A stretch of 51,900 bases of DNA from Acutalibacteraceae bacterium (lineage in GTDB: Bacteria; Bacillota; Clostridia; Oscillospirales; Acutalibacteraceae), in assembly GCA_045645685.1 (NCBI GenBank), contig JAZRJH010000179.1, forward strand, positions 1 through 51,900. Direction: 5' to 3'. The notes under the pieces are model-generated. The model had not been told where the DNA came from. It was given only the letters and a program-made list of their open reading frames with translations, and did not search any database. The translations under genes and the position numbers were made by a program. Numbering within the stretch: position 1 is the first letter of the stretch; every line of letters starts with the position of its first letter. Positions 2,699 to 44,327 of this stretch are shown here, piece by piece.

Positions 2699-3385
2699 AT
2701 GAAGATTCAGTTAATCACAAATAATAGTACAATTGTTGATAAAATTCACAAATTTATTGTTAATGAATATCCTGAATATACTATTGATACAGATTGCATA
2801 CAAACTGCAAATGATATCACAATAAATGATAAATTTGATGTTGTATTTATTGATGATTCATTGGGAGAGCTTTTGATTCCTACGGCTGTTTTTATTAAAA
2901 AACATTACTCCGAATGCAAGATTATTGTATTATCAGATAATATTGCTTTACTTTCTGATTTGTTGTTATACATCACTCCGTTTGGAGTGATAGATAAGCC
3001 ATTGCATAACAAAATTATTCACAGATATCTTGAGGCGGTTAAAGCATCTGATAAGGCTATAAACAAATTTTGCTATATAGAAAAAGGAAGGAAAAGAACT
3101 GTTTCATTTTCCAATATTATTTACATCGAAAGCAACAGAGAAAAAATCATTGTCAGAACAACAAAATCTATTTTTAGTTTATGGATGAAAATAAGTGAAG
3201 CCGAACCACAATTCCCTGATTATTTTGTAAGATGCCATAATAGTTTTTTGGTTAATATGAATCACGTTGTTGACTGTCAAAAAAGCACTTTCAAACTTAC
3301 CAACGGACAAGAAATTGCAATCAGCCGATCAAGAAAAGATGAAACAATGGAGAAATTTCTTGCGTTTATGGACTCTGTAAGATAA
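2699..3385 (+). CDS. LytTR-family regulator with degenerate receiver domain
   Basis: IIYIES..., FVRCHNSFLVNM and IAISRSRK LytTR motifs; VVFID receiver Asp present but N-terminal acidic pocket replaced by TNN; ATG at 2699 follows GGGGG. Confidence 0.9.
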   Translation: MKIQLITNNSTIVDKIHKFIVNEYPEYTIDTDCIQTANDITINDKFDVVFIDDSLGELLIPTAVFIKKHYSECKIIVLSDNIALLSDLLLYITPFGVIDKPLHNKIIHRYLEAVKASDKAINKFCYIEKGRKRTVSFSNIIYIESNREKIIVRTTKSIFSLWMKISEAEPQFPDYFVRCHNSFLVNMNHVVDCQKSTFKLTNGQEIAISRSRKDETMEKFLAFMDSVR

Positions 3386-3522
3386 CATCCAAACATGTTG
3401 CATTTTGTTGGATTTATGTGCTAATTGTAGAACAAATATTTATTTATATTATATATAAATATATAATTATTTTTATAAAACAATGTATAAGCTAACTTTT
3501 TAGATTTGAATGGAGAAAAAAG

Positions 3523-5187
3523 ATGCTTAAAATCGGTTCAGTACTTGATGGTAAATATAAAATACTCTCTGAAATCGGCCACGGCGGCATGAGTGTTGTT
3601 TATATGGCGCTCAATGAAAAAGCAAATAAAACTTGGGCCGTTAAAGAAATCCGAAAAGACGGAAAGATGGACTTCAATGTTGTTAAACAGGGTCTTGTGG
3701 CTGAAATAGAAACTCTCAAGAAGCTGAAGCACAATAATCTTCCGAGCATTGTTGATGTTATCGAAGATAAGGATTCATTTATCATTGTAATGGATTATAT
3801 CGAAGGCAACTCGTTGGACAGAGCTTTGGCTGATAACGGACCGCAATCTCAGGATGATGTTATAAATTGGGCTATTCAGTTGTGTGATGTTTTAGGATAT
3901 CTTCATTCATGTAATCCGCCTATAATTTACAGAGATATGAAGCCTGCGAACATCATGCTTAAGCCTGATGGAAGCATTGCACTTATAGATTTCGGAACTG
4001 CAAAGACATATGAAATAGATCTTGGTGAAACAACAGGTATAGGAACTATTGGTTATGCTGCCCCTGAACAATATCTCGGCAGCGGTCTTGGCAGAACTGA
4101 TGCCAGAACAGATATCTATTGCCTTGGAATTACATTATATCACTTACTTACAGGAATTGATCCTTGCAAAAATGTTATCAGTGACAGATCAATAAGAGCG
4201 GTTAATCCCTCTTTCTCATATGGGTTAGATGAAATAATCATAAAATGTACTCAGCCTAATCCGAACGACAGATATCAATCGTGTGCCGAACTGTTATATG
4301 CATTGGAACATCATAACGAGATGGGTGAGATTTACAATAAGAATCTCAAAAAAAAGCTAGGCATCTTCATTGCTCCTGTTGTTTTATCGTTGGTTATGGC
4401 TTTTGCAAGTATATTCTGCGGTGTTTCTGCTGATGGAAAAAAGAAGAACGATTACGACAATATTATAAAAAGCATCTATTCATTGCCTGATTATCAAAGC
4501 AGATGCGAACAGTTGAAAAAAGCAGTAAAAATGTCTCCGGAAAGAGAAGATGCATACTTAACGATGCTCGAGGTTGTTCTTGAGGAAGAAACTTCAAACG
4601 AAGGGGCATACATGATAAGTGCTGACGAGTCAGGTTTTCTGAATTGGTGTCTTACAGACACTGAAATGAATTATCTTGATGTTTTGAAGGAAGAAAATCC
4701 CGACGGACATCTTAATGTCTGCAAGGAAATGGGATTCAAGCTTTGGTACAACTATAAAAGTGAAAACGGCGGATATGATGTTGCCAGAGGGTGGTTCAGA
4801 AGAATTGCGGATGTTGATAATGTTGCGGAAATGTTTTCAGATATTGCAGAAAGTCGTGAAAAAATAAAGCAGCTCAGAGGACGTAACAATCCTAACAGTG
4901 AAGCTCTTTACGTGGAGTGCTGGACTACTTTGAACGATATGTACAATCTTTCCGAAACAATCACCGATAAAAGTTATAAAAAGGTTGCTCTGAATGAAAT
5001 TGCGGATTGTATTTCGATGTATGTTACAGGATTTCTCACAGAAACTGAAGAGATAACAAAGGACGATTTGTCAGGGTTACTTAAAAAAGTCAAAGAAGAA
5101 GCAAAGACAATGTTTGCAACAGATAGCAATTTACTTGCTAAAATCGATGAGGCACAAGCAAGAATAGAAATGGTTGTTGTTGAATAA
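3523..5187 (+). CDS. Hanks-type Ser/Thr protein kinase with one TM helix and C-terminal helical ectodomain
   Basis: IGHGGMSVV, AVKE, YRDMKPANIM, DFG, GTIGYAAPE, DIYCLG; hydrophobic GIFIAPVVLSLVMAFASIF. Confidence 0.96.
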   Translation: MLKIGSVLDGKYKILSEIGHGGMSVVYMALNEKANKTWAVKEIRKDGKMDFNVVKQGLVAEIETLKKLKHNNLPSIVDVIEDKDSFIIVMDYIEGNSLDRALADNGPQSQDDVINWAIQLCDVLGYLHSCNPPIIYRDMKPANIMLKPDGSIALIDFGTAKTYEIDLGETTGIGTIGYAAPEQYLGSGLGRTDARTDIYCLGITLYHLLTGIDPCKNVISDRSIRAVNPSFSYGLDEIIIKCTQPNPNDRYQSCAELLYALEHHNEMGEIYNKNLKKKLGIFIAPVVLSLVMAFASIFCGVSADGKKKNDYDNIIKSIYSLPDYQSRCEQLKKAVKMSPEREDAYLTMLEVVLEEETSNEGAYMISADESGFLNWCLTDTEMNYLDVLKEENPDGHLNVCKEMGFKLWYNYKSENGGYDVARGWFRRIADVDNVAEMFSDIAESREKIKQLRGRNNPNSEALYVECWTTLNDMYNLSETITDKSYKKVALNEIADCISMYVTGFLTETEEITKDDLSGLLKKVKEEAKTMFATDSNLLAKIDEAQARIEMVVVE

Positions 5188-5210
5188 TAGTCTTGAAATA
5201 AAATTCGTGT

Positions 5211-5699
5211 ATGGTTGGAGTTGAGTGGGCTTTGAATAAATCAAATAGTGACAGAACAGTTCTGTCGATTTTTTATCTTTCAATCGGATTCATGGCTTTG
5301 TTTGCGGCGTCATTTCTGATGATGCCCGTGGCAAACGGAATATCACTGAACGAAGGAAAAAACGGAATTTTGTATCTTGTTGGAATTGTTTTTTGGTTAT
5401 CATTTTTGTTATCGCAGGTTATGATGATAACAGTTTCGATAAAAAGAAAAGCTGACAAAAGATACAGCAAAAAGAAAAGATTGGGTTTGATATCATTTTT
5501 TTCCAACAGAGAAGCAACGATTGCGGATATACTCACGGCAGTTTTTACAGCTGTATTTGTAATCTGCACATTAACAACAGATAGTTATTTGATATACGTT
5601 TTTCTCTGTCTTGCGGTGCTTTCATTCGAAATGCACTGCGTTCTGAACGGAAAAAATTATGCTTATATAAAAGAATTGAAGTCTGGGGGCAGCGTGTGA
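5211..5699 (+). CDS. Integral membrane protein (about 4 TM), unknown function
   Basis: Four hydrophobic segments; stop codon overlaps the start of the next gene (GTGA). Confidence 0.75.
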   Translation: MVGVEWALNKSNSDRTVLSIFYLSIGFMALFAASFLMMPVANGISLNEGKNGILYLVGIVFWLSFLLSQVMMITVSIKRKADKRYSKKKRLGLISFFSNREATIADILTAVFTAVFVICTLTTDSYLIYVFLCLAVLSFEMHCVLNGKNYAYIKELKSGGSV

Positions 5700-8600
5700 T
5701 GAATTTTAAAAAAGGAACAACAGCATCAAAGATACTGTCAATTGTGCTTTCGCTTGTGATGGTTCTTAGTGCCATTCCCATGCAGGAAACGGTTGCATAT
5801 GCGGCAGAATTTGAAACAAACCAAAATGTCTTTTCTGTCCAGTATCTGAAAAAAGATGTTGTTCAGAGCGGAGTCGAAATCAAAATCAAACCCAATGAGG
5901 ATAAAGACGATACTTTTTCAGGCGTTACTGATGAGTATGGTGTGTGGAAATCAGATGTAACATGGGAATCGCTTTCGGATGTTTTCTATGTTTATATCAA
6001 TGGTGAAGCAAAAACAGTAACCAAACCCGGAAAACCCAATAAATTCCTTATTATTTCAGATGACGAAAAAAAGTGGACCGATCGTGCAATGCCTCTTGTG
6101 TCGGTTGTTATCGGAGCTGACAAGTCGACAGTAACAAGAGGAGAATCGTTCGAACTCAAAGCATCCGCAATTGGTACTCCTTATGCATATCAGTGGTATC
6201 TTGATTCAAAGAAAATTGACGGAGCAACCGAACGTTTTCTTATTATTGACAGTGCAACGCTTGAAGACGGCGGCACATACACATGTAAGGTAACAGATTT
6301 AAACGGAGATTCAAGAACATCAAATGAAGTCACCGTTAAAGTCAGCGAAAAAACTCCTGAAAAAGTAACTCTCAATGCATATGCAGACGGAAAAGAAATC
6401 GACGGAGATATTTCAAGAGATTCTGTAAAAGAAGTTGAAATCAAGCTGGAAAACCTTCCCAAGGATGCAGCTGTTTCAGAAGTTGAATATTATATCAACG
6501 ACAAGTGTGTCAGTTCAGGAACAACAGAGCTTTCATATGTTTTCAAAATCGAAGACGGCGTTGAAGTGTATGCTTGCAAGGCAAAGGTAGCTTTTGATAA
6601 GACATATGAATCCGTTGAAGTTGAGTGTTCTGTCCATGCTCCTCTTCTTGCACAGGATGAATTAGTAATCACCGTTGACGGTGCTGAATATGACGAGGAA
6701 ACAGGCACTTATAACATTACTTATTCAGCTTCTCCCAAAGCAAAATTTGATGTTACCGTCACAGGCGGTTCAGGCGACGGTGCTTACTCACTTAAAATAA
6801 CAGATGAGAAGGATTCAAGCGGAAAAAGTCTTTTCACCAAAGGAAAGATAGCCACTGCAAGCCAGACATTCACAAAGAATAAGTGGACTGTGACAGTAAA
6901 CAACGCAGGTTCTTTCAATTTGGTGGCATCCAGAGCGAGTGACGGAAGCTACAAAGATGTTGAACCCGTTACAATTTCCGTAAATGTTGCAAAGGCAACT
7001 CCCGAAGGTTTTGCTTTTGTAACAGAAGCTCCCGAAGCAGTTACATATAACGAAAACGGCAATAAATTCAGCAATCCTGTTGTTGACGGATTCACAGATG
7101 TTGTTTATTCAATCGAATCAGGCGATTGCGCAACAATCGACGGTAAAACAGGCGAGCTTACAATAACAAAAGCAGGCGAAGTTACAGTTAAGGCTGTTCT
7201 TGCAGGCAACAAAAACTATGAAGAAGCAACCGCAACCTATACTCTCACAGTAAACAAGGCTGCACAGAATGTTGCATTTGAAGAAAAAGCAGAAACAATT
7301 TTCTACGGCGAATCATATTCAAGAATTGCAAACCCTGTAAAGGTTGAAACTGCAGCTGACGGTTATGGTTATAACCATGACGAGGGCGTTAAAGTTGAAT
7401 ATTCAATTGCTGACGAAACAGTTGCAAGCGCAAATGAAGACGGAAGTCTTTCATTCAAGGATTTTGCTCTCGGCACAGTAACTGTCAAAGCAACATATGC
7501 AGGAAATGACTGCTATGAAGCTGCAGAAGCAGAATATACACTTACCGTTGAAGAATATACAGTTGAAAATCCTTGCACAACAGACGGTGACAAGATTATC
7601 GCTGGCGGCGAATGGTATACAGGCGACATCACAATTACCCCTGCTGAAAATCATCTCATCGGCAGAACAAACAACCTCGGCGATTATTCAGAATGGTCAG
7701 AGTCAATCGTTATTGATACCGAAGGCAATGAAAACGGATTCGATTTCTACGTCAAGAATATCGAAACAGGCGCAATTTCACAGCTTTACACAGTTGAATC
7801 CGAAGCTGTTAAGCTTGATAAATCAGCTCCCGAAAACCTTAAGGTAAGCTATCAGACACAGTCATGGTACGAAGATGTGATTGAGAGCGTAACTTTCGGT
7901 TACTATAATTCAGTTGTTACCTTCACTCTTGAAGCAGACGACGATGTTTCGGGTGTTGAATATTTCGTATGGAAGCTCGCTTCCGATGAAACAGATGAAA
8001 CTGTTGTTCCCGAAACAACAGTTGCCGCAACTGAAACTGACGGCATTTACAAATCAGACGTATGTGTTCTCGGCGATGAGAATGACCTTCAGGAACTCCG
8101 CGGTAAAATCTCATTTGTTGCATATGACTTTGCAGGCAATTCAGAAGAGTATGAAGACAGCTATGTAATTGTCATTGATGCAAAAGATCCCGAACTCTAT
8201 ATCAACACCAACGTTTCGCCCGAAACCGTTGTTAACAATGCATATCCCTACGGACAGGCAGACGAAACATCCGAAGATACAATTGAAATTTTCGGCAACG
8301 AAGTTGAACTCACATTCGGTATTATCGAAAAGAACTTCTTTGAAGATAATGCATATGTTGAAATCAACGGAGAAGATGTAACATCAAAGCTTTCATGGGT
8401 TGCTTCAGGCGATAATCACTATGCAACCTACACTCTGAAGGCTGACGCTGATTACGAAATCACTCTCGTTTATGAAGATGTTTTCGGCGAAGATGCAGAA
8501 AACAAAGAAATCAAGAAGACATACGAAGCATCAAAGTCGCTTGCAATTGACACAGAAGCACCGGCTGTTTCCGTTTCACTCAGCGCAGCTGACTATGAAG

Positions 8601-11600
8601 CATCCGATGTTAAATATTATGATGACACAGTAACAGTTGAAATTGCGGTTGAAGAAGAAAAGTTCAATCCCGCAGGTATCGTTGTTTCAAGCGTTGAAGG
8701 CTTCAAGGGCATGAGCATTGAAAACGTCGAATACCTCAAGAATGCCGACAGCTGGTCATACGATTCAGATATCGGTGCATACAAGGCGATTGCAGAATTC
8801 GTTGCAGCAGATGCAGACGGCGACTATGCTTTCGCAGTTGATTACACAGACCTTGCAAAGAAAGTTGCAGATAAGGCTGAATCAGGCACATTTGTTATCG
8901 ATACAACAGCACCCCAGACTGATATTGAATCAGCAGTTGAGCCTGAAATCACAGTAAATGACAGCTATCCTTATGAAACAGCTGAAAAGGATGCAGAAAA
9001 TTCAGTTGACATTTTCGCATCAGCAACAGAATTCGTTTTCAAAATCACAGAAAAGAATTTCTTTGAAGACGGTGCAGAAGTAACCGTTAACGGAAATGAA
9101 GTTTCACTTGAGTGGAACAGCGAAAACAATGTCAACACCGCAACTTATACAATCGACAAAAACGGCGATTATGAAATCAAACTTTCATACACTGATATTT
9201 TCGGCAATGCAGTTTATGAATCAACAGATTTTGTTTCAGTTGATATGATTGCTCCCGAAGTAACAGTTGTTCTCGGTGAAGCTGATTTTGAGGCTGATGA
9301 TGTCAAGTATTATGACAGCGCAGTAACTGCAGAAATCAAGGTTAAAGAAGAGAGATTCAACCCTGCAGGAATCAGCGTTTCTGAAATCGAAGGTTTTGCA
9401 GGCATGAGCGCTGAAAACATTGCTTATCTTGCACAGATTTCGAGTTGGGAACCCGAAGACGATGGTTATAAGGCATCTGTTATTTTTACTGCAAAAAATG
9501 CAGACGGCGATTATGCTTTCGCAGTTGATTATACAGACCTTGCAAAGAAAGTTGCAGATAAGGCCGAATCAGGCACATTTGTTATCGATACAACAGCCCC
9601 CCAGACTGATATTGAATCGGCAGTTGAGCCTGTAATCACATTAAATGACAGCTATCCTTATGAAACAGCTGAAAAGGATGCAGAAAATTCGGTTGACATT
9701 TTCGCATCAGAAACAGAATTCGTTTTCACAATCACAGAAAAGAATTTCTTTGAAGACGGTGCAGAAGTAACCATTAACGGAAATGAAGTTTCACTTGAGT
9801 GGAACAGCGAAAACAATGTCAACACCGCAACTTATACAATCGACAAAAACGGCGATTATGAAATCAAACTTTCATATACCGATATTTTCGGCAATGCAGT
9901 TTATGAATCAACAGATTTTGTTTCAGTTGATATGGAGAATCCTTTCGTAACAATCGAACTCAATGCAGAAAATCAGGTGTACGACGGAATTAAATACTAT
10001 AACAGCTATGTCGTTGCGAAGATTACTGTTAAGGAAGAAAGATTCAATCCTGAAGATATTGCTATTTCAGAAATTGAAGGCCTTGCAGGTATGAGCGAAG
10101 CAAACAAGAATTATCTTCTTGATTCTGAAAATTGGCAGTATAACACAGAAAGTAAATCCTACAGCGCATCGGTTGCATTTACTACCGAAAATGCAGAGGA
10201 TGTTTACGGATTTGCTGTTGATTATAAGGACATCGCCAACAATTCCGCAATGCAGGTTGTTTCGGATACGTTTGTTATCGATGTTACGGTTCCTGTTATA
10301 TCTGTTGATTACGGAACTGCAAGAATTCTTGATTCAGATAATCTTCCTTTAGAGAATCTTGATAATATCGACAGCAACAGCGCAACGGTTTATGACAACA
10401 AAGATGTGGTTGTGACGGTTGTTGTTGAAGAAACAAATTTTGATCCCGCTAAGGTTATCGCAATGCTTTCACAGAATTTCAAGGAAGCAAAAGCTTGTGA
10501 TTTTGACGGAGAGTGGGTATCGGACGGAGATAAACACACAAACACAATAACATTAAGAGAGAAGGATGTTTACAAATTAAATATCACTTGTGTTGATCGC
10601 AGTGATAACAAATCCGCTGAATATGTATCACCTAAAATTGATATCAACGATTCAGAGCCTTCAATTACTTTTGATGTTACACCCGAAAGCGAAAACGGAT
10701 ATTACAAAGAAGATTCCCTTGATGTAACAGTTAAGATTTTTGATGAATATTTCGCACAGGAAAATGTGGATATCAAAATTGAAACCGTTGATCTTGACGG
10801 AAAGAAAATTGAACTTGATGTCGAAGATGTGATTCCTGATTACAATGATATCGAATGGACAACAGGTGAAAACTTCTGTAACAGCATTGTTTTCACATTT
10901 GCAACCGAAGGCAGATACAGCATCACAGTTGAATATGCCAATGCAGTTGATATCAGCGATAAATCACTTTGTGAATTCGTTCTTGACCGCACTGCACCTA
11001 CACACGAAATAACATATTCAGAATCAGTATACCAGACAATTCTCAACACCATTACATTCAGACTTTTCAACAGCAGTAAGTCAGAAGTCAAGGTAACCGT
11101 CAAGGCTACAGATATGGTTTCCGGTATCAAGAAAATGGTAGTTGAATATTCTGAAGAACTCAAGCCTGAAGAATATTACGGTGTTGAAAACATCGTGCCG
11201 AAGGCAGAGTTTACCAACAACAGCGAAAATGACGAAAAGGTTTATGAAGAAACCTGGATTGTCAATGCAGAAAATGCAACTGTTGAGGCAAAGGCAAATA
11301 TCAAGGTTACGGTAACTGATAATGCAGGTAACATTACGGAAGAAGAAGACAGGGTTGACAAGAACAACGAAGTAGGAATCGATAACGTTTCTTCAACTAT
11401 TTCGATGTCATATGGCGATGCGGTTATTCTTAACTCGGAAAATGTTGAAACAGACAGCTTTGAAGAGAGCGAGAAAAACAACGTAACAATCTATGATAAT
11501 AAAAATATTGTTGTAACTGTTACTGTTAATGAACCCAATTTCAACCCAGAAAAAACCGAATGCTATCTCTCTGTTGATTATGCAGAAGCACAGAAACACA

Positions 11601-33101: not shown

Positions 33102-33353
33102 ATGGATAAAAAAACTATAGTTGTCTTGGTTTGCGATCATCGCAATTCAACAGAAACTGATGTTGAAATTCCGGTTAATATCAGTGCCAATGAGTTGATT
33201 GTTGCGATAAATGAGAGTTTCCATCTGGGAATGGATACAGATAATTTATATAAATGCTTTCTCAGTGCCGAAAATCCTATTGCCTTGCTCAAAGGAGACA
33301 AAACCATTGATGAGTTTGGCCTTCATGACGGAACTGTAATTCATTTGATATAA
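33102..33353 (+). CDS. esaB: EsaB/YukD ubiquitin-like T7SS component
   Basis: 83 aa; DVEIP...KTIDEFGLHDGTVIHL pattern; immediately upstream of essC. Confidence 0.9.
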   Translation: MDKKTIVVLVCDHRNSTETDVEIPVNISANELIVAINESFHLGMDTDNLYKCFLSAENPIALLKGDKTIDEFGLHDGTVIHLI

Positions 33354-36300: not shown

Positions 36301-37938
36301 CTTCCGAGCATATGCTTGCCGCCGCTTGAAGAAATAATCGATGCAGACAAGGCGTCTGTTATGGACGATGAATTTGTCAACTCAAAAGTTCCTATCGGTA
36401 TTTATGATGATCCCGCACATCAGTATCAGGGTGAAATCAACCTTGATCTTGCAGAGGAAAATGTCATGATAATCGGTTCTTCAAGATGCGGAAAAACAAA
36501 CTTCCTTCAGCTTATTATCCGTTCGCTTGCAAGCCGATTCTCACCTGATGAGGTTAATATCTACATCCTTGATTTTGCTTCAATGGTTCTCAAGAATTTT
36601 GAAAAACTTAACCATGTCGGCGGTGTAGTTTGTGCATCCGATGACGAAAAACTTAAGAATTTCTTCAAGCTTATCAACTCGGAAATTGCTTCAAGAAAGA
36701 AAAAACTTGTTGAAGTCGGCGTAAGTTCATTCGGCGCTTACCGAGAAGCAGGATATACAGATATGCCTCAAATTGTTATTCTTGTTGATAATTTTACTGC
36801 TATGAAGGAAATGTATCTTGATGATGAAGATCCGTTTGTAATTATATGCAGAGAAGGTCTTTCAGTTGGAATATCGGTAGTTGTTTCTAATTCTCAAACA
36901 GGAGGAATTGGATACAAATATATTTCAAATTTTTCATCAAGGGTGGCTTTGCATTGTAATGATTCTTCAGAATATAGTTCATTGCTGGAATTTTGCAGAA
37001 AAAAGCCTAAAAATGTTCCCGGAAGATGTATTGTTTCCTATCAAAAAGAATATTTTGATTGTCAGATTTACAGAGCTTTCATTGGCGAAAAAGAAATTGA
37101 TCGCGTTAAGGAAATGAAGGATTTTGTTAGTAAAATTAACGAAAAGAATGTTGGTAAATACGCTAAAAAGATTCCTGAAATTCCCGAAGTACTTACTTTC
37201 AATTATCTTAAAAACAACTATGATTGTAATTTTGCTGGTTACAAATATCCTCTTGCACTTGAGTATTCCAATGTTACTCTTGTTTCTGTTGACCTTAAGG
37301 CGATGAATGAATTCAGCATTGTTGGTAATGATTCAAAAAGAAATATATCTGTGTTGAACTGTTTGCTTTACCAGATTAACGAAAAAATATTTGACAAACC
37401 TGTAAAAATGTATATTTTTGATGCTGTAGAACGACCTTTGAAAAAATATGCAGACAAAGTTTATGTTGAGCGTTATACGATTGATTATAGTGAAATCAAT
37501 TCCGTCTTTGACGAGATTATGGCAGAGATGGAGGAAAGACATAAATTTATAGTCAATGGAGAAACAGACAAATTATCAAAGTGTCATCAGATTGTTGTTA
37601 TTATAAACAATAAAGATGCAATAGAGTATATTTCAAGCAATAAATCTACATTTGAACAGTACAAGAAGATGATCAAGCAATTTAAAGCTACGGGATTATC
37701 AGTTATATTCTCTGACATTGAAGATGTGTCAGCTGGTTTCGGTGCTCCGGAGTTGCTTAAGCATCTGAGAGAAGGTAAAAAATCAATCATTACAAGCAAT
37801 ATACATGAAGCTAAGTTCTGTGATTTGCCTTCAGGTATAAATAGAACTTATAAGAAAGTTAATCCCAATGATTGCTTCCTGTTGAATGGTTCTGATTTGT
37901 TGAGAATTAAAATTTCAGAAGGAGAGAAAGAGGTATGA
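33364..37938 (+). CDS. essC: Type VII secretion ATPase EssC/YukB (FtsK/SpoIIIE family)
   Basis: Two FHA-like N-terminal domains, two TM; HGPHGLVAGTTGSGKSE, IDFKGGGM, IIVDEFAEL, ARIGRSLGVHLILATQKP; second P-loop GSSRCGKT; degenerate third ATPase domain. Confidence 0.97.
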   Translation: METTYKITLFNKRVYKEIELSSERNAIAIGTDKSCDVRFNPEAFSGDFKLMVRRTNNGWQLRCGENIYISDSGAMKYVSKGLEHGDTFSIRYQNNNQEILALTFTLSFDAENFDYNRKIDISGKSSVSFGASQSCDVVFSDELMEPYEFSLQNENGTWIVADNGSKYGVFINGQRIMRSQPISDYMFFSVLGYSFYLKENFIYFDSSLKIQLNNNLHAEPLHRIGSCLEYPKFNRNTRLKYVVSQEGIPILDPDKKPDKPKSNFLMSLIPSLMSIFLVIFVRGGALSGQGGFLENLSGNSYILFSICTMGVGIITSILSMINGKKDYRETVRKRETVYMKYIERKGKEIDEIRHQEKDLLGDIYVSVEDELEQVREFSGDLFDRTVEDEDFLHVRLGVGNLPALRQIDYKKQERIETTDALLNKPEDLHNEFKNLDNVPVVSKFAQLNSVGVVGDDELLYRIMKNMIIDLCVRHYYNDVKLFFILSEEHSMRFYWARWFKNIYNESLGVRNIVCDDESKNNLFEYLYVELSRRESSKTSYPHVVVMVFDDVGIKLHPLSKYIEKANSLGFTFVFFENFKELLPQGCQDIVILNPDGMSGRVFPSSDVNSGVDFNYSTISDEDALFIAQRLAPVYCEEVGLESSLTKNITLFKLLGIHSAEDLDLTSRWKSSQVFKTMAAPLGVMRKNEVVSLDLHEKFHGPHGLVAGTTGSGKSEILQSYVLSMATLFHPYEVSFVMIDFKGGGMVNQFKNLPHLIGAITNIDGAEINRSLLSIKAELLKRQNLFAEMDVNHIDQYIKKYKANEAKVPLPHLIIIVDEFAELKADQPEFMKELISAARIGRSLGVHLILATQKPAGQVNDQIWSNSKFKLCLKVQTKEDTNEVLKSPLAAEIKEPGRAYLQVGNNEIFELFQSAYSGAPAVVSDEGLKNEFKISAVDFSGAKKLIYEHKNKKSEKESETQLQAIVNYVEAYCESQSIEKLPSICLPPLEEIIDADKASVMDDEFVNSKVPIGIYDDPAHQYQGEINLDLAEENVMIIGSSRCGKTNFLQLIIRSLASRFSPDEVNIYILDFASMVLKNFEKLNHVGGVVCASDDEKLKNFFKLINSEIASRKKKLVEVGVSSFGAYREAGYTDMPQIVILVDNFTAMKEMYLDDEDPFVIICREGLSVGISVVVSNSQTGGIGYKYISNFSSRVALHCNDSSEYSSLLEFCRKKPKNVPGRCIVSYQKEYFDCQIYRAFIGEKEIDRVKEMKDFVSKINEKNVGKYAKKIPEIPEVLTFNYLKNNYDCNFAGYKYPLALEYSNVTLVSVDLKAMNEFSIVGNDSKRNISVLNCLLYQINEKIFDKPVKMYIFDAVERPLKKYADKVYVERYTIDYSEINSVFDEIMAEMEERHKFIVNGETDKLSKCHQIVVIINNKDAIEYISSNKSTFEQYKKMIKQFKATGLSVIFSDIEDVSAGFGAPELLKHLREGKKSIITSNIHEAKFCDLPSGINRTYKKVNPNDCFLLNGSDLLRIKISEGEKEV

Positions 37939-38276
37939 GCGAATATTATGCTTATTCATCAAAAGCTTCGGACGGTGATTTCAAGTTAGATACCAGTGGC
38001 TTTGATGCGGTAATAAACGAAAGCAAGAGAATCGCCGAAAAGGTGAGAACCTTGAAGTCAGACATGGATATAGCCAAATCAAACCTTATGTATTCTTGGT
38101 CGGGTAAAGGCGCAGACACTTTCGAAAAGAAATATAATATCCTCAGTCAACAGTTTGATGACTTGAAAGAGAGCTTTTATGATATATATGAAAGTCTTGT
38201 TGAAATAGAAAAATCCTATATTCAAGCAGATACAGATATGTCGAAAGCTCTCGATGGTAGGGACAGCAGATATTAA
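37935..38276 (+). CDS. WXG100-family protein
   Basis: 113 aa helical; central WSG; C-terminal YIQAD (YxxxD). Confidence 0.9.
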   Translation: MSEYYAYSSKASDGDFKLDTSGFDAVINESKRIAEKVRTLKSDMDIAKSNLMYSWSGKGADTFEKKYNILSQQFDDLKESFYDIYESLVEIEKSYIQADTDMSKALDGRDSRY

Positions 38277-38290
38277 TAGGAGGTGTTTTG

Positions 38291-38683
38291 ATGAGTGTTG
38301 AGTCTTTAAAAGCAAAAAGAAGAACCAAAAAAAAACAGTTTAATGAATATGTCAAAAGAAGAGACGCAATCAATCGAATTATCAACAATATGAGCAGTAA
38401 GACAGGCGATGATGTTTCGGATGTTAACAATAAAATATATGCAACATCCAATTTTCTGCGTTCAGGCCTTTCAGGTGTTAGTAAAATATCGTCTGTAGCT
38501 ACCGAAATTTATAGCGAAAAGGAATCTTATGTGGGTGGAGATGATGCGCTTTCATCTTGCAGCGAATATTTGACAAAAGAAAAAAACAGATGCCAAAGTA
38601 AAATTAATTCTCTTGACAGAGAGATAGATGATTTGGAAAAACAGATCAAAGCAGAAGGCGGAACAATTTATTTTTGGGAGTGA
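38291..38683 (+). CDS. Small helical protein, probable LXG-associated targeting factor
   Basis: Helix-turn-helix coiled-coil pattern; lies between a WXG100 gene and the LXG-like effector. Confidence 0.65.
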   Translation: MSVESLKAKRRTKKKQFNEYVKRRDAINRIINNMSSKTGDDVSDVNNKIYATSNFLRSGLSGVSKISSVATEIYSEKESYVGGDDALSSCSEYLTKEKNRCQSKINSLDREIDDLEKQIKAEGGTIYFWE

Positions 38684-38689
38684 CATAAT

Positions 38690-40240
38690 TTGGGTACAGT
38701 AATGATCATATATTCCGAGCTGGAAAGTGCTGTGAAGAATGCAGGAAAAGTTCAAACCGAGATAGAGGGGTATATCAGTGAGATTAAAAAAACAATAAAA
38801 ACCCCGATATCAAATCTTCCCGGCAGCGATTCTAAAGGATATGCTTCAACTGCTTCTCAACTTGCGCAAAACAAAATAAATCAGTTGAACAAAAAATCCG
38901 AAAAGTTTGCAAGTATTGAAAAAAAATTAAATGATGTTGTCACAACAGCAAAAAGTAAAGACAGCAATGTTTCCGGTCGAATTGAGGAAATTGCGAATTC
39001 GGTTATAGGAAAACGAAAGTGGTATCAAGCAGTCGGAGATTGGCTTTATAATACTTTTTGTGTTGATTTGGCAAACAGTAACTTTGTGTTTGAATTTTTT
39101 GCTGATTGCTATGAATGGGCACATTCCAGATACGAAAAAGTAAAAGAAATAGTTGTTGATTGGTTTAAATATGGTGATGGTAAATACATATTGAACATAG
39201 CACTTTCGGTTGCTGGTACGATTGCTGCTATTGCCGGAGCAATTGCAGCGGTTGCGGCTGCACCGTTTACAGGTGGTGTATCACTTGCAGGACTTATCCT
39301 TTGTATTGGAGCGGTAGCTTCGTGTGTCACCGCTGCGATTGCAGCAATTAATACCATTGCAACGGTATATGACAATGGAAAGGCGCTAAGTCTTAGTGGA
39401 AATATTTTCGATGGATATGATGGTAAACCTGGCGCCGCAAGATATTATGGCGATACTGCCAGGATGAGCGAAGCATTTGACAAAAGAGATATGGGCGACG
39501 AAACAACAAACAAGATATTCAACTTCACAGGAAAAACTATCGATTTTATCGATAATGTCGCTACAGTTGTTGATGTAGTTTGCAGTGTTGCAAAATTAGG
39601 TATTGTGTATGATTACAGAATAAAGAAACCTGGAAAATCAAATATCAATACAAGAATCAATAAGGACACTTTCTTTAAGGGATATGATTTTTCGTATAAA
39701 AACATAACGAGAAATCTGATGAAAGAAATGGGATTTAAGATTACGTCGGGCGATTTAGATACGAAGACAGCGTTTGATTTCAAAAAGAAATTTTTTGCTG
39801 GGGATTATAAAATCGATAAGTTTACTAAGTTTACTAATGGTAAAAAAGTATGGTCGGCACCTGAATGGTCTGTAAAAGTATTCAAAGTAGCCAAAACCTT
39901 TACAAACATCAATAAAATTAACTCGTCGATTTCGACATTTGACCATCTCCTTGATCCCCCGCCGTCAAATGTTAAAATGACAAAACTTGAAGAGGCAATT
40001 TATGATGCTGAAAAGATCTACAACGGAACAAAGGCCATTACGGACGTAATCGGGTTCACCAAAATCGGTTCTGTTTACGGTAAATATGGAATAAAGGTTG
40101 GAGAAACCACAGGCACTGTTATAAGTGCAATCGTAAATTTAATAGACAGTGCTTCAACTTCCGTTGCAACCGGAGCAGTTCAGATGCCTGCACCTGCAAC
40201 AAGCGCAGGCGGAGGCGGTGGAGGAGGATACGCATGGTAA
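38690..40240 (+). CDS. Putative T7SS effector: LXG/WXG-like N-terminus, Gly/Ala-rich hydrophobic hairpin, unknown C-terminal domain
   Basis: Helical N-terminal 100 aa with central LPG; IALSVAGTIAAIAGAIAAVAAAPFTGGVSLAGLILCIGAVAS; no signal peptide. Confidence 0.75.
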   Translation: MGTVMIIYSELESAVKNAGKVQTEIEGYISEIKKTIKTPISNLPGSDSKGYASTASQLAQNKINQLNKKSEKFASIEKKLNDVVTTAKSKDSNVSGRIEEIANSVIGKRKWYQAVGDWLYNTFCVDLANSNFVFEFFADCYEWAHSRYEKVKEIVVDWFKYGDGKYILNIALSVAGTIAAIAGAIAAVAAAPFTGGVSLAGLILCIGAVASCVTAAIAAINTIATVYDNGKALSLSGNIFDGYDGKPGAARYYGDTARMSEAFDKRDMGDETTNKIFNFTGKTIDFIDNVATVVDVVCSVAKLGIVYDYRIKKPGKSNINTRINKDTFFKGYDFSYKNITRNLMKEMGFKITSGDLDTKTAFDFKKKFFAGDYKIDKFTKFTNGKKVWSAPEWSVKVFKVAKTFTNINKINSSISTFDHLLDPPPSNVKMTKLEEAIYDAEKIYNGTKAITDVIGFTKIGSVYGKYGIKVGETTGTVISAIVNLIDSASTSVATGAVQMPAPATSAGGGGGGGYAW

Positions 40241-40860
40241 CTGTAAATGAAAAATTGAAGTCAAGATTACAAGCTGAATATTTAAAAAGAAAAAACAAGA
40301 AACTAAAGATTTTTCATGCTTTTATTATAATTTCCGCTTTGCTGTGTTTAGCATATTGTGTTTATCTGATATTTTCACCGGATAAAGCAATAGTGAATGT
40401 TATGGGGGTCCCGAAAAAAGATTTTTTTTCAATCTCATTCATTGCTGTGACTAGTTTAGTTCTTTTGGGATTAATCAGTTTGTTTGTAAGAGTTTTTATA
40501 GGAAAAAAGTCCTCACAAAATTTGTCAGCCAGAATAAATGAAAAACTGTCGGTAAAAGAAAAAGCTTTGCTTTATTCTTTTAGAATCAAGCACGAAACTT
40601 TTCCTGCGGACAGACATGTAATTTATATTCCTTTTGATGATGAAATAGCAGTGCATTATAACTCAACAACAAGAGAAATTTACTTTAAAGGTAAAATATA
40701 TTATGAATATGTTGAAATGTATGATGAAAATGTTAATAAGACATCATTTCAGGAGGAACTCGATGAATTTGTAATATATGATTATTTTGAACCGCAGTTA
40801 AAAGAAGTTTTGGTAAAACAAAATGTTAAGATTGTTGAAAAGGAGAGTAATGATGGATAA
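40234..40860 (+). CDS. Two-TM membrane protein, candidate immunity protein
   Basis: Overlaps the effector stop codon; two TM helices plus a soluble beta-rich domain. Confidence 0.6.
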   Translation: MVTVNEKLKSRLQAEYLKRKNKKLKIFHAFIIISALLCLAYCVYLIFSPDKAIVNVMGVPKKDFFSISFIAVTSLVLLGLISLFVRVFIGKKSSQNLSARINEKLSVKEKALLYSFRIKHETFPADRHVIYIPFDDEIAVHYNSTTREIYFKGKIYYEYVEMYDENVNKTSFQEELDEFVIYDYFEPQLKEVLVKQNVKIVEKESNDG

Positions 40861-42139
40861 AGAACTTTTCCAGGATTATATAAGTAAGGGAATTTCACTT
40901 ATGACAAGCGGCAACTACGGAGCCGCAAAAACAGAGTTCGAGAATGCAATAAAGCTGGATAATAAGTCTTTTGATGCATATACACATCTCGGAAATGCAT
41001 GTGCAAATTTAGAGCTTTATGAAGATGCAATAACGGCTTTTAAAAACTGCTTACTGATTATGCCGGAATCCGGCGAAACTTTTTTCTCAATAGGTAACAT
41101 CTATCTACTTAAGGATGAAAGCATAAAAGCTGTCGAATATTACAATAAAGCAGAAGAAAAAGGTTACAAGTCGGCGGATATGTATCGCATACTTGCTGGA
41201 ATTTTTTGTGAGAACAATGACCCCGTACAGGCGTTAAGAAATGTTTCAAAAGCTATATCTGAAGAGCCTTTTAATGGTGAACTTCGTCTGTTTAAAGCAC
41301 AAATTTATATGGCGTATCAAAAATACCCTGAGGCTTTGGATGCTCTTGAAGAAATGCAGAAAGTTTTGCCGGATGCATTTGAAGCATACGATATGAGAAC
41401 ACAAATTTATTGTGCGCTTGGAAGATATGAAGAGGCGCTTCAGGTTGCTGAAATGGGCTGTGACAGATTCCCTGAGGATCCTAATGTTTCAATGGTGAAA
41501 CTCAGGGCCTTGATTGCTGCGGAAAAAGATGATGAAGCCCTTGATTTTATTGAGGAGATGAAGATTAACGGCCAGTACAATGCTGTTATAAAGGAAGCTG
41601 CTATTCAGGAATCAACAATATATTTGCATAAGTTTGATATGGAAAAAACATTGGTGACGCTTCGAAAGGCAAATGTCATCCTTAATGGCGATGCAGATAT
41701 TCTTTATTTGATAATGGATGTCTATGCAAAAATGAACGACAATGAGAAAACTCTTGAAACAGCTGAGGAACTTCTCAAATATGAAGTTAGTGATTTCTAT
41801 ACCGCAACAGCAAAATATTTCAGAGCGTTTTGTATGGACAAGTTGGGGAAAGAAGAAGAAGCCTTGACTGAATACAAGAATCTTACAGTTTATTTGAGAA
41901 AACTTACAATAGACACTCCCGCTTTCTATGAGGGTTATATTTATCGTTTGCTCTGTCACACAAGGTTGGGTGAATATGATAAGGCTCTCAGCCTTGCGGA
42001 TTATTTAGAGAATGTTAATCCGGAGAATGCGGATTCTCATATGTTCAGATATTTTATCTACAAGGAACAGGGCAATACAGAAAAAGCTGAACAAGAGAGA
42101 AGACTCGCACTTGAAATCAATCCGGAGTTAACGCTGTGA
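40850..42139 (+). CDS. Tetratricopeptide-repeat protein
   Basis: Repeated TPR patterns such as AYTHLGNACANLELYEDAITAFKNCL. Confidence 0.92.
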   Translation: MMDKELFQDYISKGISLMTSGNYGAAKTEFENAIKLDNKSFDAYTHLGNACANLELYEDAITAFKNCLLIMPESGETFFSIGNIYLLKDESIKAVEYYNKAEEKGYKSADMYRILAGIFCENNDPVQALRNVSKAISEEPFNGELRLFKAQIYMAYQKYPEALDALEEMQKVLPDAFEAYDMRTQIYCALGRYEEALQVAEMGCDRFPEDPNVSMVKLRALIAAEKDDEALDFIEEMKINGQYNAVIKEAAIQESTIYLHKFDMEKTLVTLRKANVILNGDADILYLIMDVYAKMNDNEKTLETAEELLKYEVSDFYTATAKYFRAFCMDKLGKEEEALTEYKNLTVYLRKLTIDTPAFYEGYIYRLLCHTRLGEYDKALSLADYLENVNPENADSHMFRYFIYKEQGNTEKAEQERRLALEINPELTL

Positions 42140-42149
42140 GGTGGTTTTG

Positions 42150-42452
42150 ATGGCTTGGGGTAATGATGAATTACAGTTTAATGTTGATCACATCAAAAAG
42201 ATGAGAACAAATGTTAAACAAACAATATCAGATCTGCGCGATGGAAAAAGCAAATTGAAATCTTCCTTGGAGTCATTAAAAGGAAAATGGAACACTCCGG
42301 CAGGGAAAAAATTCATGAGTGATTTTAATTTCGATTGGGTTAATGATATCGATAAGTATATCAACGTTTTAGAAAAGCTTGATGAGTTGCTAGGTGTTGC
42401 TGAATCCGACTATTCTGAAGTTGAAGAATTGGTAAAGAGGATTGATTTTTGA
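42150..42452 (+). CDS. WXG100-like protein (degenerate WNT motif)
   Basis: About 100 aa helical; KWNTPAGKKF; C-terminal YSEVE (YxxxE). Confidence 0.82.
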   Translation: MAWGNDELQFNVDHIKKMRTNVKQTISDLRDGKSKLKSSLESLKGKWNTPAGKKFMSDFNFDWVNDIDKYINVLEKLDELLGVAESDYSEVEELVKRIDF

Positions 42453-42503
42453 TGCAAAACCTAATGGTTTTACATAAATATATTTGTGAAAGGAGTGAAT
42501 AAA

Positions 42504-42791
42504 ATGGCAGTACGTGTTGACAGACCCGGTATCGAGAAGTGCATAAAGGTTATAGATGATGCAATCAAAGAACTTTCTGAGGCAGCTTCAAAAATCGAAA
42601 AAACGATGACAAGCGAAATCCCTGATTACTGGGAAGGTAATGCTCACGATAAGGCTCAGAGTACATATGACCAGGAATATCGTAAGCTTCTTACCAAAAC
42701 TCTTCCTGAGGCTGTAACAAGTTTCAAAGATTACATTGATCAGTGCAAAAACACTATTATTGAAATCGACGAACAGCTTTCAGGTTCTTAA
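42504..42791 (+). CDS. WXG100-family protein (EsxA-like)
   Basis: 95 aa; YWEGNA; strong RBS AAGGAG; followed by a hairpin. Confidence 0.9.
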   Translation: MAVRVDRPGIEKCIKVIDDAIKELSEAASKIEKTMTSEIPDYWEGNAHDKAQSTYDQEYRKLLTKTLPEAVTSFKDYIDQCKNTIIEIDEQLSGS

Positions 42792-42836: not shown

Positions 42837-42902
42837 TCGGTGAACACAGATAAATTCATGCAGATGGTTTGGAAACTCGAAAGAATATAACAGGAGATAA
42901 TT

Positions 42903-43679
42903 ATGGAATATTTTATTGCTGCATGTTCAGATATTGGGATAAAGAAAAAAAGCAACCAGGATGCCTTGTCTGCAAGAGTTTTTTCTGTGAATGGTGAGAA
43001 AGCTGTCTTTGCGGTACTTTGTGACGGAATGGGCGGACTTTCTCAGGGGGAAATAATCAGTGCAACTCTTGTTGAGGCATTTATGAAATGGCTTGTGAAT
43101 GCGCTGGAAAACAAGTTGCTTATTGATGTTAATATAGAGAAAATAGTCAGAATGTGGAACAAAGTTGTTTCCTCAGAAAACAAAAAAATAATTGAGTTTG
43201 CAAAAAAACAGAATCTTTCAATGGGCAGCACCGTGGTGGTGGTGCTTATTATCGGTTCTGATTATTATATAATGAATATTGGCGATTCGCGGGCATATTT
43301 GATTTCTTCGGGAATAAAGCAGGTTACCCATGACCATTCTTTGATTTCGGCTGAAATAGCAGCCGGAAGACTTACCCCCGAAGAAGCTGAAAAAGATCCA
43401 AGAAGAAACATCTTGCTTCAGAGTGTCGGTGTGACGGAAGATGTAAAACCTGAGTATTATTACGGAAAATTATCAAAGGATGTTTGCTTTTTGCTTTGTT
43501 CTGACGGACTTGTTCATAAAGTTACCCCTTCAGAAATGGCAAGATTTTTTGAACCGACATCTTTGGATGATAAAAATTCTATGCAATCCGCAATTACGAA
43601 AACTATTTCTCTTGTTAAAGAGAGAATGGAAACTGATAATATATCAGCTGTTCTTATAAAAGCATTTCAAAATCAATAA
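42903..43679 (+). CDS. PP2C-family Ser/Thr phosphatase
   Basis: NQD, CDGMGG, GST, NIGDSR, CSDG, DNIS motifs. Confidence 0.96.
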   Translation: MEYFIAACSDIGIKKKSNQDALSARVFSVNGEKAVFAVLCDGMGGLSQGEIISATLVEAFMKWLVNALENKLLIDVNIEKIVRMWNKVVSSENKKIIEFAKKQNLSMGSTVVVVLIIGSDYYIMNIGDSRAYLISSGIKQVTHDHSLISAEIAAGRLTPEEAEKDPRRNILLQSVGVTEDVKPEYYYGKLSKDVCFLLCSDGLVHKVTPSEMARFFEPTSLDDKNSMQSAITKTISLVKERMETDNISAVLIKAFQNQ

Positions 43680-43700
43680 AAATCCGAAGGAGAATTCAAA

Positions 43701-44327
43701 ATGAATTACGAAACTTTAACTGTTTTAAGTTATATTGCGGCTGCATTGAGTGTAGTTTTGCTTGCGGTGGGTGTTGTTTTATTCTTTAAGCTGAAAATTA
43801 AAAATGTTATCGGAGACCTTACGGGCGCAAACCAGAGAAAGGCAATCGAAAGCATAAAAGCCGGAAACAAAACAAGTGCAGACAGCATATCATCTTCAAA
43901 TAAAGCCGCCAAAACATCAAAAACATCAGCAAAAACTTCTGCACCTAAAATTGAAAAATCCGGAAATACTGCGGATGAAATTTCAGCGGAAGCAGAAAAA
44001 AGAAAAGTGTCTCTTGTTGCTGATGAGAATGACGGAGTTACTGAAGTGCTTGGAGTTAACGCAATTGATGATGACGATGTGGATTCTGTCACAACTGTAC
44101 TTACAAGTGAAATTGAGGAAGAAGACGACGAAGGTGTGACATCTGTGCTTGGTGTGCAGGCTGTTGATGAGAATGACGATGATGAAGGCGTGACATCCGT
44201 GCTTGGCGTGCAGGCTGTTGATGCTGATGATGACGATGATGTTACATCGGTGCTCGGTGTGCAGCGCATAGATGACAGCGAAGGTTTTGAAGATGGTATA
44301 ACCTTTGTTCACGGAAAAACTTTATAA
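43701..44327 (+). CDS. Single-TM protein with a disordered tail carrying five acidic V-T-x-V-L repeats
   Basis: N-terminal TM then KLKIK; GVTEVL, SVTTVL, GVTSVL, GVTSVL, DVTSVL. Confidence 0.85.
   Translation: MNYETLTVLSYIAAALSVVLLAVGVVLFFKLKIKNVIGDLTGANQRKAIESIKAGNKTSADSISSSNKAAKTSKTSAKTSAPKIEKSGNTADEISAEAEKRKVSLVADENDGVTEVLGVNAIDDDDVDSVTTVLTSEIEEEDDEGVTSVLGVQAVDENDDDEGVTSVLGVQAVDADDDDDVTSVLGVQRIDDSEGFEDGITFVHGKTL
44022..44264 (+). repeat. Imperfect in-frame tandem repeat (D/E-rich-VTSVLGVQAV)
   Basis: GT[G/T]ACATC[T/C/G]GTGCT[T/C]GG[T/C]GTGCAG recurs three times, plus two diverged copies. Confidence 0.85.

Follow-up and report, generated by a model that had tools for sequence, protein, structure and literature searches.

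Nesting of a conjugative-element-type Tad pilus block within a T7SS locus of an Acutalibacteraceae bacterium

The window, the whole analysed stretch of 51,900 nt, carries a T7SS locus in which a Tad pilus block of the conjugative-element type is nested without surrounding transfer genes. This block is the new part, whereas the T7SS with its switch of kinases, PP2C phosphatases, FHA proteins, Ig-repeat protein and DUF6382-FHA protein is of an already described kind: all of these are published components of T7SSe/f/j (PMC11217815), and the T7SSb loci chosen for comparison in an earlier note on this DNA were thus the wrong yardstick. The openly accessible literature searched contained no description of a Tad block nested within a T7SS locus. 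According to our preferred reading, to which we give an even chance, an EssB-less, likely Thr-phosphorylation-regulated T7SS has captured a conjugative-type Tad pilus as an attachment device for predicted antibacterial effector delivery. It builds on gene content, intact catalytic motifs, the usual home of such Tad blocks among mobile genes, retention and purifying selection, which we regard as established. The features are, by window coordinates:

2699..3385, + strand, LytTR-family regulator (PF04397; ATG at 2699)
3523..5187, + strand, membrane Hanks kinase 1, TsxD-like, one TM, predicted extracellular C-terminus (Pkinase 1e-47)
5211..5699, + strand, four-TM protein
5696..15310, + strand, Ig-repeat surface protein, 3204 aa, TsxI-like (Big_13/Ig match)
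15351..15390, + strand, strong hairpin after the Ig gene (-23.5 kcal/mol, z -5.9)
15453..15884, + strand, predicted secreted protein, 143 aa, two CxxC motifs
15975..18088, + strand, two FHA proteins with canonical pThr-binding motifs (PF00498; GR..SxxH..N)
18078..18872, + strand, PP2C phosphatase 1
18889..20433, + strand, kinase 2, two TMs, predicted cytoplasmic tail with 3 x ETGGTQLL
20440..20712, + strand, 90-aa protein with a C-terminal CxxC..CxxC motif, matching no family
20758..21030, + strand, major pilin (DUF6133)
21048-21098, strong hairpin after the major pilin
21104..26414, + strand, Tad assembly genes: A24 prepilin peptidase, CpaB/RcpC, TadZ-type P-loop protein, CpaF, TadB, TadC
26359..27960, + strand, two minor pilins (DUF4320; 233-aa long form) and a 118-aa single-TM protein
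27966..30599, + strand, secreted beta-sandwich protein, 877 aa, last of the Tad block
30622..32046, + strand, TsxJ (DUF6382, two TMs, degenerate FHA)
32043..33083, + strand, TsfV-like MinD/ParA-type ATPase (AAA_31)
33102..33353, + strand, EsaB/YukD (TsxB; PF08817)
33364..37938, + strand, EssC (TsxC) with N-terminal FHA domains (TIGR03928, 1171 bits; cut-off 778)
37935..38683, + strand, WXG100 protein and small helical partner (Lap-like)
38690..40240, + strand, candidate effector, 516 aa: conserved helical N-terminus, hydrophobic hairpin, variable C-terminus (18-member alignment)
40234..42139, + strand, two-TM candidate immunity protein and conserved TPR protein
42141..42791, + strand, WXG100 pair
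42801-42841, terminator-like hairpin after the last WXG100 gene
42903..44327, + strand, PP2C phosphatase 2 and TsxH-like single-TM protein
44469..44638, + strand, tRNA-Thr and tRNA-Tyr, right border of the island

The locus comprises 34 consecutive + strand ORFs (2699-44327), starting with the LytTR gene, in agreement with the earlier count of about 34 tightly spaced genes on one strand; among the 33 gaps, five exceed 70 nt (137, 142, 90, 73 and 111) and the others are at most 45 nt or overlaps. Pfam/NCBIfam matches to two kinases, two PP2C, three stand-alone FHA proteins, DUF6133 pilin, A24 peptidase, CpaB, T2SSE ATPase, DUF4320, YukD, EssC and three WXG100 proteins (PF06013 x3) bear out the naming of the T7SS, Tad, kinase, PP2C and FHA parts; TadB and TadC, lacking a Pfam match, are named after their homologues, TM pattern and place in the gene order. 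Adjoining tRNA genes, the region constitutes an accessory island: at the tRNA-Thr/tRNA-Tyr border site other genes adjoin in four of four genus relatives examined, and its GC content is 37.9% versus 41.7% for the genome. An empty-site check found no tRNA-Asn close to tRNA-Thr among the relatives fetched. As a continuous, co-oriented gene run the single locus of the earlier note holds, but since three strong hairpins (z about -6) lie within it, after the Ig gene, the pilin and the last WXG100 gene, it is unlikely to be transcribed as a single unit. The two Tad junctions (gaps of 45 and 22 nt) showed no strong hairpin, and promoter scans revealed no enrichment relative to shuffled sequence (48 vs 58.5; 61 vs 59.8).

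The T7SS-Tad join is not a misassembly, because contigs of independent runs bridge both junctions, the left in X4 (20630-20872), X5 (20536-20880) and X8 (20380-28000) and the right in X2 (30165-30691) and X8 (30564-31190). Together with the domain matches, this confirms that the Tad genes are nested between kinase/FHA/PP2C genes and esaB-essC. An assembly chimera or a decaying ICE remnant could be suspected, as the window is an entire MAG contig of a fragmented assembly and a related metagenome contig (L123) departs from the locus within tadC into unrelated sequence. Against this, the bridging runs come from three studies, queries with TrbL, SpoVG and ArdA matched nothing in the genome (86% complete), all Tad ORFs are open, and the Tad genes are under purifying selection (39 synonymous and 0 non-synonymous changes relative to L123 over 635 codons). 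We regard this explanation as largely refuted.

The general hallmarks of a T7SS are present, namely an EssC/EccC ATPase, a WXG100 protein and the ubiquitin-like TsxB. In a FastTree-only phylogeny with long-branch warnings, EssC falls among Lachnospiraceae, Oscillospiraceae and Clostridium sequences; its FHA domain was located at residues 127-181, and neither EssC 1-230 nor a 32-row alignment contains the GR or SxxH of a pThr motif. EssA, EssB and EsaA had no Pfam/NCBIfam match among the locus proteins, and only the TsxJ fold resembles EssB. TsxJ matches YukC/EssB 6z0f (E 8e-6, 209 columns) as well as kinases and pseudokinases (Z 11-12, rmsd 3.5-4.4, 174-193 aligned), and its DUF6382 domain is predicted to adopt a kinase fold resembling the EssB/YukC pseudokinase. 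The TsfV-like ATPase (AAA_31 2e-13 behind a 130-aa N-domain, no TadZ-like_ARD match at E 0.01) occurs in 49 of 66 related essC loci and the TPR protein in 17 of 66. By its sequence the 516-aa predicted substrate belongs to a polymorphic-toxin-type family with varying C-termini, one of whose 18 members carries an AHH nuclease, which favours the antagonism machine that the earlier note had proposed. Its own C-terminus contains no known toxin domain; an Atlas search with this part (best 0.87) gave nothing usable and a PDB sequence search was negative. The candidate immunity gene has the lowest GC3 of the locus (0.23).

Kinase 1 has intact catalytic motifs, a TM at 281-299 and homologues of near full length within essC loci (E down to 1e-122). 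The four-TM gene lies ahead of the Ig gene in three related loci. The giant adhesin of the earlier note is indeed a large Ig-repeat surface protein, with an N-terminal hydrophobic segment and a C-terminal TM, but its layout fits the published T7SS component TsxI; of the 41 essC loci with 9 kb or more of upstream sequence, 20 contain a homologue. A 33-nt inverted repeat flanks the gene of the 143-aa protein, for which the fetched loci yielded no homologue. The first protein of the FHA pair carries acidic 13-aa repeats (repeat D1) and a DQTMIL site, and the TsxH-like protein five acidic T-x-x-L repeats, a motif shared by 15 of 16 relatives. Two assignments were rejected: kinase 2 as a kinase-TsxH fusion, for which motifs were the sole basis (profile match not significant, E 0.14), and the N-terminal part of FHA-521 as DUF6382, to which it did not align.

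The Tad block encodes a complete monoderm Tad/Flp set (pilin, prepilin peptidase, CpaB, TadZ, CpaF, TadB, TadC and minor pilins) together with a Walker A motif (GATSTGKT) and prepilin-type motifs (G-x4-[DE]), and no secretin was found among the locus proteins (Pfam). The long-form minor pilin occurs in six of 70 representatives, most others being 75-200 aa. The 118-aa ORF has a TseK-like shape with its single TM, but it lies within the Tad block. The 877-aa protein is a candidate tip adhesin whose N-terminal part varies and has diverged in run X8; the model of the protein is poor (pLDDT 48) and matches generic Ig sandwiches only, and searches with the N-terminal part were negative in the Atlas and among PDB sequences. 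Its homologues likewise close ICE Tad blocks, and the order from pilin to adhesin is identical in cpaF relatives, amid mobile-element genes (ParB, SpoVG, ArdA, TrbL). The block is likely derived from a conjugative element, judging by this gene order; no mating-pair or relaxase genes were found around it among the window ORFs scanned, and viral contigs yielded no TadB relative.

Elsewhere the two machines occur apart. All 66 of the closest essC loci (GTDB) lack the Tad block, and T7SS, kinase or FHA genes were seen at none of the 80 nearest cpaF loci (37 of which reach 5 kb or more upstream or 8 kb or more downstream), so that neither machine needs the other. ICE-type cpaF was absent or unlinked in 52 of 52 genomes with a related T7SS, the nearest at 114 kb, in a genome-wide test omitting 16 of the 66 essC loci, mostly on short contigs. 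A putative linked case, G262, was discarded, as its cpaF lies about 28 kb from essC with housekeeping genes between. Since the same T7SS and switch occur without the Tad block, the pilus is dispensable in general. The nested clade is rare, with no instance among 131 genomes of the genus, 400 of the family, 400 of the order, 330 of relatives and 234 of the class (overlapping samples).

This distribution bears on the earlier proposal that pilus contact or retraction triggers the kinases and assembles the T7SS, as a monoderm counterpart of Myxococcus Kil. Such firing is possible but unsupported, because the switch works without the pilus in 66 of 66 essC loci; kinase is found in 33, PP2C in 28 and the Ig protein in 21 of these, and FHA and TsxH also recur in pilus-free relatives. 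CpaF has T2SSE/AAA domains only, without the fused FHA of KilF, and the scanned Tad proteins lack the acidic T-x-x-L repeat save for one weak match in CpaB. Some features do speak for a trigger. A second kinase/PP2C/FHA set sits directly upstream of the pilin gene, and TsxJ-type and TadZ-type proteins also occur in chromosomal Tad clusters. Moreover, a rewiring of TsxJ is hinted at, because the nine closest sequences, those length-matched to TadB included, have two TMs, absent from most relatives, and a degenerate FHA pocket (SD..H, YGT/FGT), where 14 of 15 others retain SR..H. Overall we consider a pilus trigger unlikely and the earlier interpretation partly supported.

A less remote alternative, though one we lean against, is that the captured pilus is a passenger that borrows an island promoter for fibre, mucus or biofilm adhesion and has no role in secretion. 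Tad pili help cells to adhere and to build biofilms (PMC11217815), both modules are widespread on their own, and the low-GC accessory island at tRNA genes would suit such cargo. Yet the block is nested amid T7SS modules with no separating hairpins, it is kept across lineages whose TsxJ differ by 35-45%, and a T7SS lies within 16 kb of other Tad lineages in three of 12 class-sample loci, two of them from one genus, versus about 0.2 expected. 

Retention of the nested block counts in favour of our preferred reading. Run X8, a lineage about 10% divergent with unchanged gene order, preserves kinase, pilin and adhesin (90.6% identity over 20380-28000) and the stretch from the adhesin end through J, V and B to essC (84-90%). 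TadB and TsxJ records have four contig sizes in common (15647, 17962, 23296 and 17019) versus 0.03 expected, a number reached in 0 of 100,000 simulations; these four TadB/DUF6382 pairings are by matched size only. TadB sits in a clade of its own with 22 rows (100/100, stem 0.72), with deeper members at 64-73%. Because the join is retained, under purifying selection, in a small clade, it is not a one-off insertion, despite its absence from related essC loci; the refuting outcome named in the earlier note is thus borne out by half. Purifying selection indicates that the pilus is useful, which does not by itself establish service to secretion. The Tad block may have been exchanged recently, since on length-matched contigs the conservation of TadB (87-94%) far exceeds that of J (57-66%) or V (53%) and the co-divergence test was weak (rho 0.76, 12/120 permutations).

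According to the preferred reading of a captured attachment pilus, the docking of YukC and YukD on YukB would have its counterpart in TsxJ and EsaB, which would bind the FHA domains of EssC. A surface cue would be sensed by the Ig-repeat protein together with kinase 1, the acidic T-x-x-L repeats, in the TsxH-like protein as well as in the kinase 2 tail, would be phosphorylated by the kinases, the two canonical FHA proteins would read these repeats and the PP2Cs reset them, and EssC would afterwards export WXG100 proteins and the effector. Pilus transcription may start at the kinase-2 module and run on into J-V-B-C, whereby pilus and secretion core would be made together. The pilus would supply contact, not signal, holding neighbouring cells close for effector delivery. 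A bolder extension, which we consider doubtful, is a domesticated mating-type pilus whose variable tip adhesin catches targets while the second kinase/FHA set relays its engagement to the EssB-like TsxJ and fires the T7SS. If true, this would be a Gram-positive pilus-aimed secretion machine that evolved separately from Kil, and one of several T7SS-Tad unions in Clostridia.

Tad genes adjoining T7SSg/h have been reported, with the question of functional link or coincidence left open (PMC11217815); it becomes testable here, because the Tad origin is traceable, the block is nested and selected, and natural controls are at hand in dozens of relatives lacking the pilus. The arrangement also suggests how gut Clostridia may achieve target contact in the absence of EsaA, its value limited by rarity and the want of a cultured carrier. 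In T7SSg/T7SSh, however, EssC has no FHA, Tad is adjacent rather than nested, and the markers are DUF5050 TsgL or EspG-like TshG; no DUF5050 match was found among the locus proteins (Pfam). In Paenibacillus, CpaF beside essC is only 25-28% identical to CpaF here (8/14 loci), and the EssC belongs to another clade. With T7SSf (Garrett, Higginson & Palmer 2024, PMC11217815) the locus shares WXG100, YukD, an FHA-bearing EssC, a PPM phosphatase, a two-TM DUF6382-FHA protein and a MinD-type ATPase amid T7SS genes, but that study found neither a kinase nor further Tad genes at T7SSf loci, whereas here the Tad block is complete and is joined by two kinases, an Ig-repeat protein and a TsxH-like protein. 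The active membrane kinase, PP2C, large Ig-repeat protein and DUF6382-FHA protein are as in T7SSe/T7SSj, and the single-TM unstructured protein H and WXG100 pair as in T7SSe (PMC11217815), whose kinase D, phosphatase F, H, Ig protein I, WXG100 pair and B are all present. In contrast, EssC FHA keeps its pThr motif and TseJ is soluble in those systems, whereas here the motif is absent and J has two TMs, and neither V ATPase nor Tad is described for them.

The closest likeness of the pilus itself is to clostridial conjugative-element Tad blocks (DUF6133/DUF4320), with the same order from pilin to secreted adhesin and 64-73% (CpaF) and about 50% (TadB) identity, but it has its own TadB clade, a longer minor pilin and no ParB, SpoVG, ArdA, TrbL or helicase genes around it; the openly accessible literature searched yielded no paper on these blocks. 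In Schaalia odontolytica Esr-Esx (PMC13622651, preprint), an Ig-repeat sensor, a kinase and a Thr-phosphorylated FHA protein control Esx. Ig-repeat surface protein, Ser/Thr kinase, phosphatase and FHA protein are shared, but Esr-Esx is an actinomycete EccC system without a pilus whose MoxR, vWA, transglutaminase and beta-propeller sensor were not seen in the locus. The Myxococcus Kil apparatus, which is linked to contact killing, likewise combines Tad machinery with several FHA proteins (PMC8460266). Kil, however, is diderm, with a secretin and FHA fused to KilF, as opposed to a monoderm plain CpaF, and its partner is reportedly T3SS* (PMC12075869), whereas the partner here is a T7SS.

The window, one entire contig of a 2.35-Mb genome (86% complete), carries 34 co-oriented ORFs from 2699 to 44327 in this order:

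First part, from 2699: LytTR protein; kinase 1; four-TM protein; 3204-aa Ig-repeat protein; 143-aa secreted protein; two FHA proteins
Middle: PP2C; kinase 2; 90-aa Cys protein; Tad block (20758-30599, pilin to candidate tip adhesin); DUF6382-FHA protein (J); MinD-type ATPase (V); YukD; EssC
Last part, to 44327: WXG100; helical partner; 516-aa candidate effector; two-TM protein; TPR protein; two WXG100; PP2C; Thr-repeat protein (H)

Catalytic sequence motifs are intact in both kinases and both phosphatases. The earlier note had pointed to a single locus combining a T7SS, a Tad/Flp pilus, a giant adhesin and a Thr-phosphorylation switch. The parts are indeed present, but the main text of PMC11217815, which defines T7SSc-j, already describes them: to T7SSe it assigns a kinase (D), a phosphatase (F), a single-TM protein (H), an Ig-repeat protein (I) and a DUF6382-FHA protein (J), and to T7SSf a J with two TMs plus an ATPase (V); Thr-phosphorylation control of the T7SS is proposed there as well. 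Compared with that main text, whose Table 1 and supplement may contain similar loci, the T7SS with its switch and Ig-repeat "giant adhesin" is of a described kind, here mixing features of T7SSf (two-TM J, V) and T7SSe (kinase, phosphatase, H, Ig-repeat protein, DUF6382-FHA). Of the essC loci in GTDB, the 66 nearest (35–59% identity) include 49 with J and 49 with V, 33 with a kinase, 28 with a PP2C and 21 with an Ig protein. A kinase-bearing T7SSf-like family with the order J-V-B-C (B, YukD; C, EssC; loci L013-L078) is widespread in Lachnospiraceae and Oscillospiraceae; with it go effectors of a polymorphic family and a TPR gene that is conserved. In the main text of PMC11217815 these families go unnamed.

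The Tad block does not belong to this T7SS family. None of the ten Tad-block proteins tested has a match at any of the 66 essC loci, 41 of which have at least 9 kb upstream, and cpaF of the type found in clostridial conjugative elements (37–49% identity) occurs in five of 52 whole genomes (50 that carry one of the 66 loci, and two of family members), the sole same-contig case lying 114 kb from essC. No T7SS, kinase or FHA genes were found at the 80 nearest cpaF loci, of which 37 are long enough for the test; five annotated ones have ParB, SpoVG, ArdA, YodL, TrbL or an SNF2 giant in place of T7SS genes. From a conjugative element the window has the pilin-to-adhesin block and nothing else, and TrbL, SpoVG and ArdA queries had no match in the whole genome at its 86% completeness. 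That the pilus is an independent passenger is a possible, if somewhat doubtful, reading of this block.

The Tad-T7SS join is nevertheless not a one-off: absent from the 66 related essC loci, the block is kept in another lineage. This lineage (X8, contigs from another sequencing run) is ~10% divergent with identical gene order, at 90.6% identity over 20380-28000 and 84–90% over 30564-36758; the adhesin's N-terminal portion and the tail of kinase 2 have diverged. An artefactual arrangement is highly improbable, as contigs of other sequencing runs span both Tad junctions (20712/20758 and 30599/30622). TadB relatives fall into 15 clusters at 67–93% identity, followed by a gap down to at most 54%, and form a 22-row clade in the tree (support 100/100); J and V also each have a small close clade. 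The 24 TadB and 16 J records have four contig sizes in common (15647, 17962, 23296 and 17019 bases; ~0.03 matches expected), from which we infer, by size alone, that these are the same contigs. On them, identity to the window's proteins is 87–94% for TadB and 57–66% for J, and the rank agreement of 0.76, equalled by 12 of 120 permutations, suggests co-inheritance; exchange of the Tad block among lineages is possible. Compared with a contig that is 98% identical, cpaF, tadB and tadC show 39 synonymous and no non-synonymous changes. The overlapping samples searched (131 genomes at genus level, 400 at family, 400 at order and 234 at class level, and 330 relative genomes) had no member of the TadB/CpaF clade, which speaks against a wide distribution; the best matches among the family genomes reach 389 bits against 601 for self, comparable to a 50%-identical match. 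The T7SS-Tad island is real and rare.

Other unions exist. In the class-wide sample, EssC matches occur in 12 of 234 other genomes, with a cpaF-like gene within 16 kb in three (crude expectation 0.19): one is a T7SSg with DUF5050, and in the other two, congeneric loci (L230, L232-L233; G1015:C47, G1178:C12), an EssC-WXG100-YukD-PP2C-kinase operon meets a Tad-like operon tail-to-tail. The main text of PMC11217815 describes Tad genes adjoining T7SSg/h, its authors leaving a functional link open. A different FHA-type EssC lies in the nearly entirely co-oriented series EssC-LytTR-YukD-WXG100-SLH-FHA/ABC-kinase-TadZ-CpaF (G233:C39, L193-L194), and 8 of 14 Paenibacillus essC loci have an upstream cpaF. 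In each of the unions observed here Tad is 25–29% identical to the window's. A Lachnospiraceae chromosomal Tad cluster also ends in its own DUF6382-FHA gene. T7SS and Tad have thus come together repeatedly and have a J-type part in common.

The locus ends on the right at tRNA-Thr/Tyr, and is regarded as an accessory island because different genes occupy this site in all four genus relatives fetched. The contig has a GC content of 37.9%, compared with 41.7% genome-wide. Right beyond the tRNAs lie genes for a tyrosine recombinase (47196-48287, minus strand) and an HTH protein (45162-46262, minus strand); next come genes of GNAT, phosphotransferase-like and methyltransferase type. On the left (66-298 and 2040-2077), tRNA-Asn is followed by two copies of its own 3' end around a DUF4434 gene, which resemble scars of serial integration. 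Two proteins show recent internal duplications: the large FHA protein contains acidic repeats of 39 nt (16734-17210), and the Ig protein a repeat spaced at 687 nt (8803-9789). At 15394-16006, the 143-aa secreted gene is bracketed by an inverted repeat of 33 nt, perfect over a 16-nt core and matched nowhere else in the genome; the arrangement is possibly an invertible cassette or a pair of operators preceding the FHA-kinase-pilus unit, and four sequencing runs showed no inversion joint.

The Ig gene and the pilin, like the last WXG100, are each followed by a hairpin at z about -6. Because no strong hairpin was seen at the two Tad junctions, the pilus may share its expression with both the kinase-2 module and the secretion core. 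We give an even chance to the Tad pilus having been co-opted for attachment. Effector family members have ~300 N-terminal residues in common, including a hydrophobic hairpin, and vary beyond; one of 18 ends in an AHH nuclease. No known toxin domain is assigned to the C-terminal part of the window's effector, which we take as putatively antibacterial.

The J model (pLDDT mostly 80–94 over residues 11-190) resembles YukC/EssB (E 8e-6) and kinase folds (Z 11–12). YukB of B. subtilis has FHA domains to which YukC and YukD bind (PMC12637312). Since the EssC FHA domains of the window locus lack the pThr motif, J would likely stand in structurally for EssB. Among J sequences, the nine closest, Tad-matched ones included, carry two TMs and an FHA pocket that is degenerate, so phospho-reading is probably the task of the two canonical FHA proteins; S-R-x-H is kept in 14 of 15 other J sequences. 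FHA domains read the pT+3 residue. The kinases have two candidate substrates, both with acidic T-x-x-L repeats: the product of the last gene, with the motif in 15 of 16 relatives, and the tail of kinase 2. Esx of Schaalia is under the control of an Ig-repeat protein together with a kinase and an FHA protein (PMC13622651); by analogy the Ig protein, rather than the pilus, would be favoured as sensor. That the pilus triggers the secretion switch is unlikely.

Among known systems, the PpkA/PppA/Fha1 Thr-phosphorylation switch gates the P. aeruginosa H1-T6SS. The Myxococcus Kil apparatus, as described in PMC8460266, has FHA proteins and an FHA-fused KilF, with signalling proposed; the window locus is similar to it in outline but lacks its defining features.
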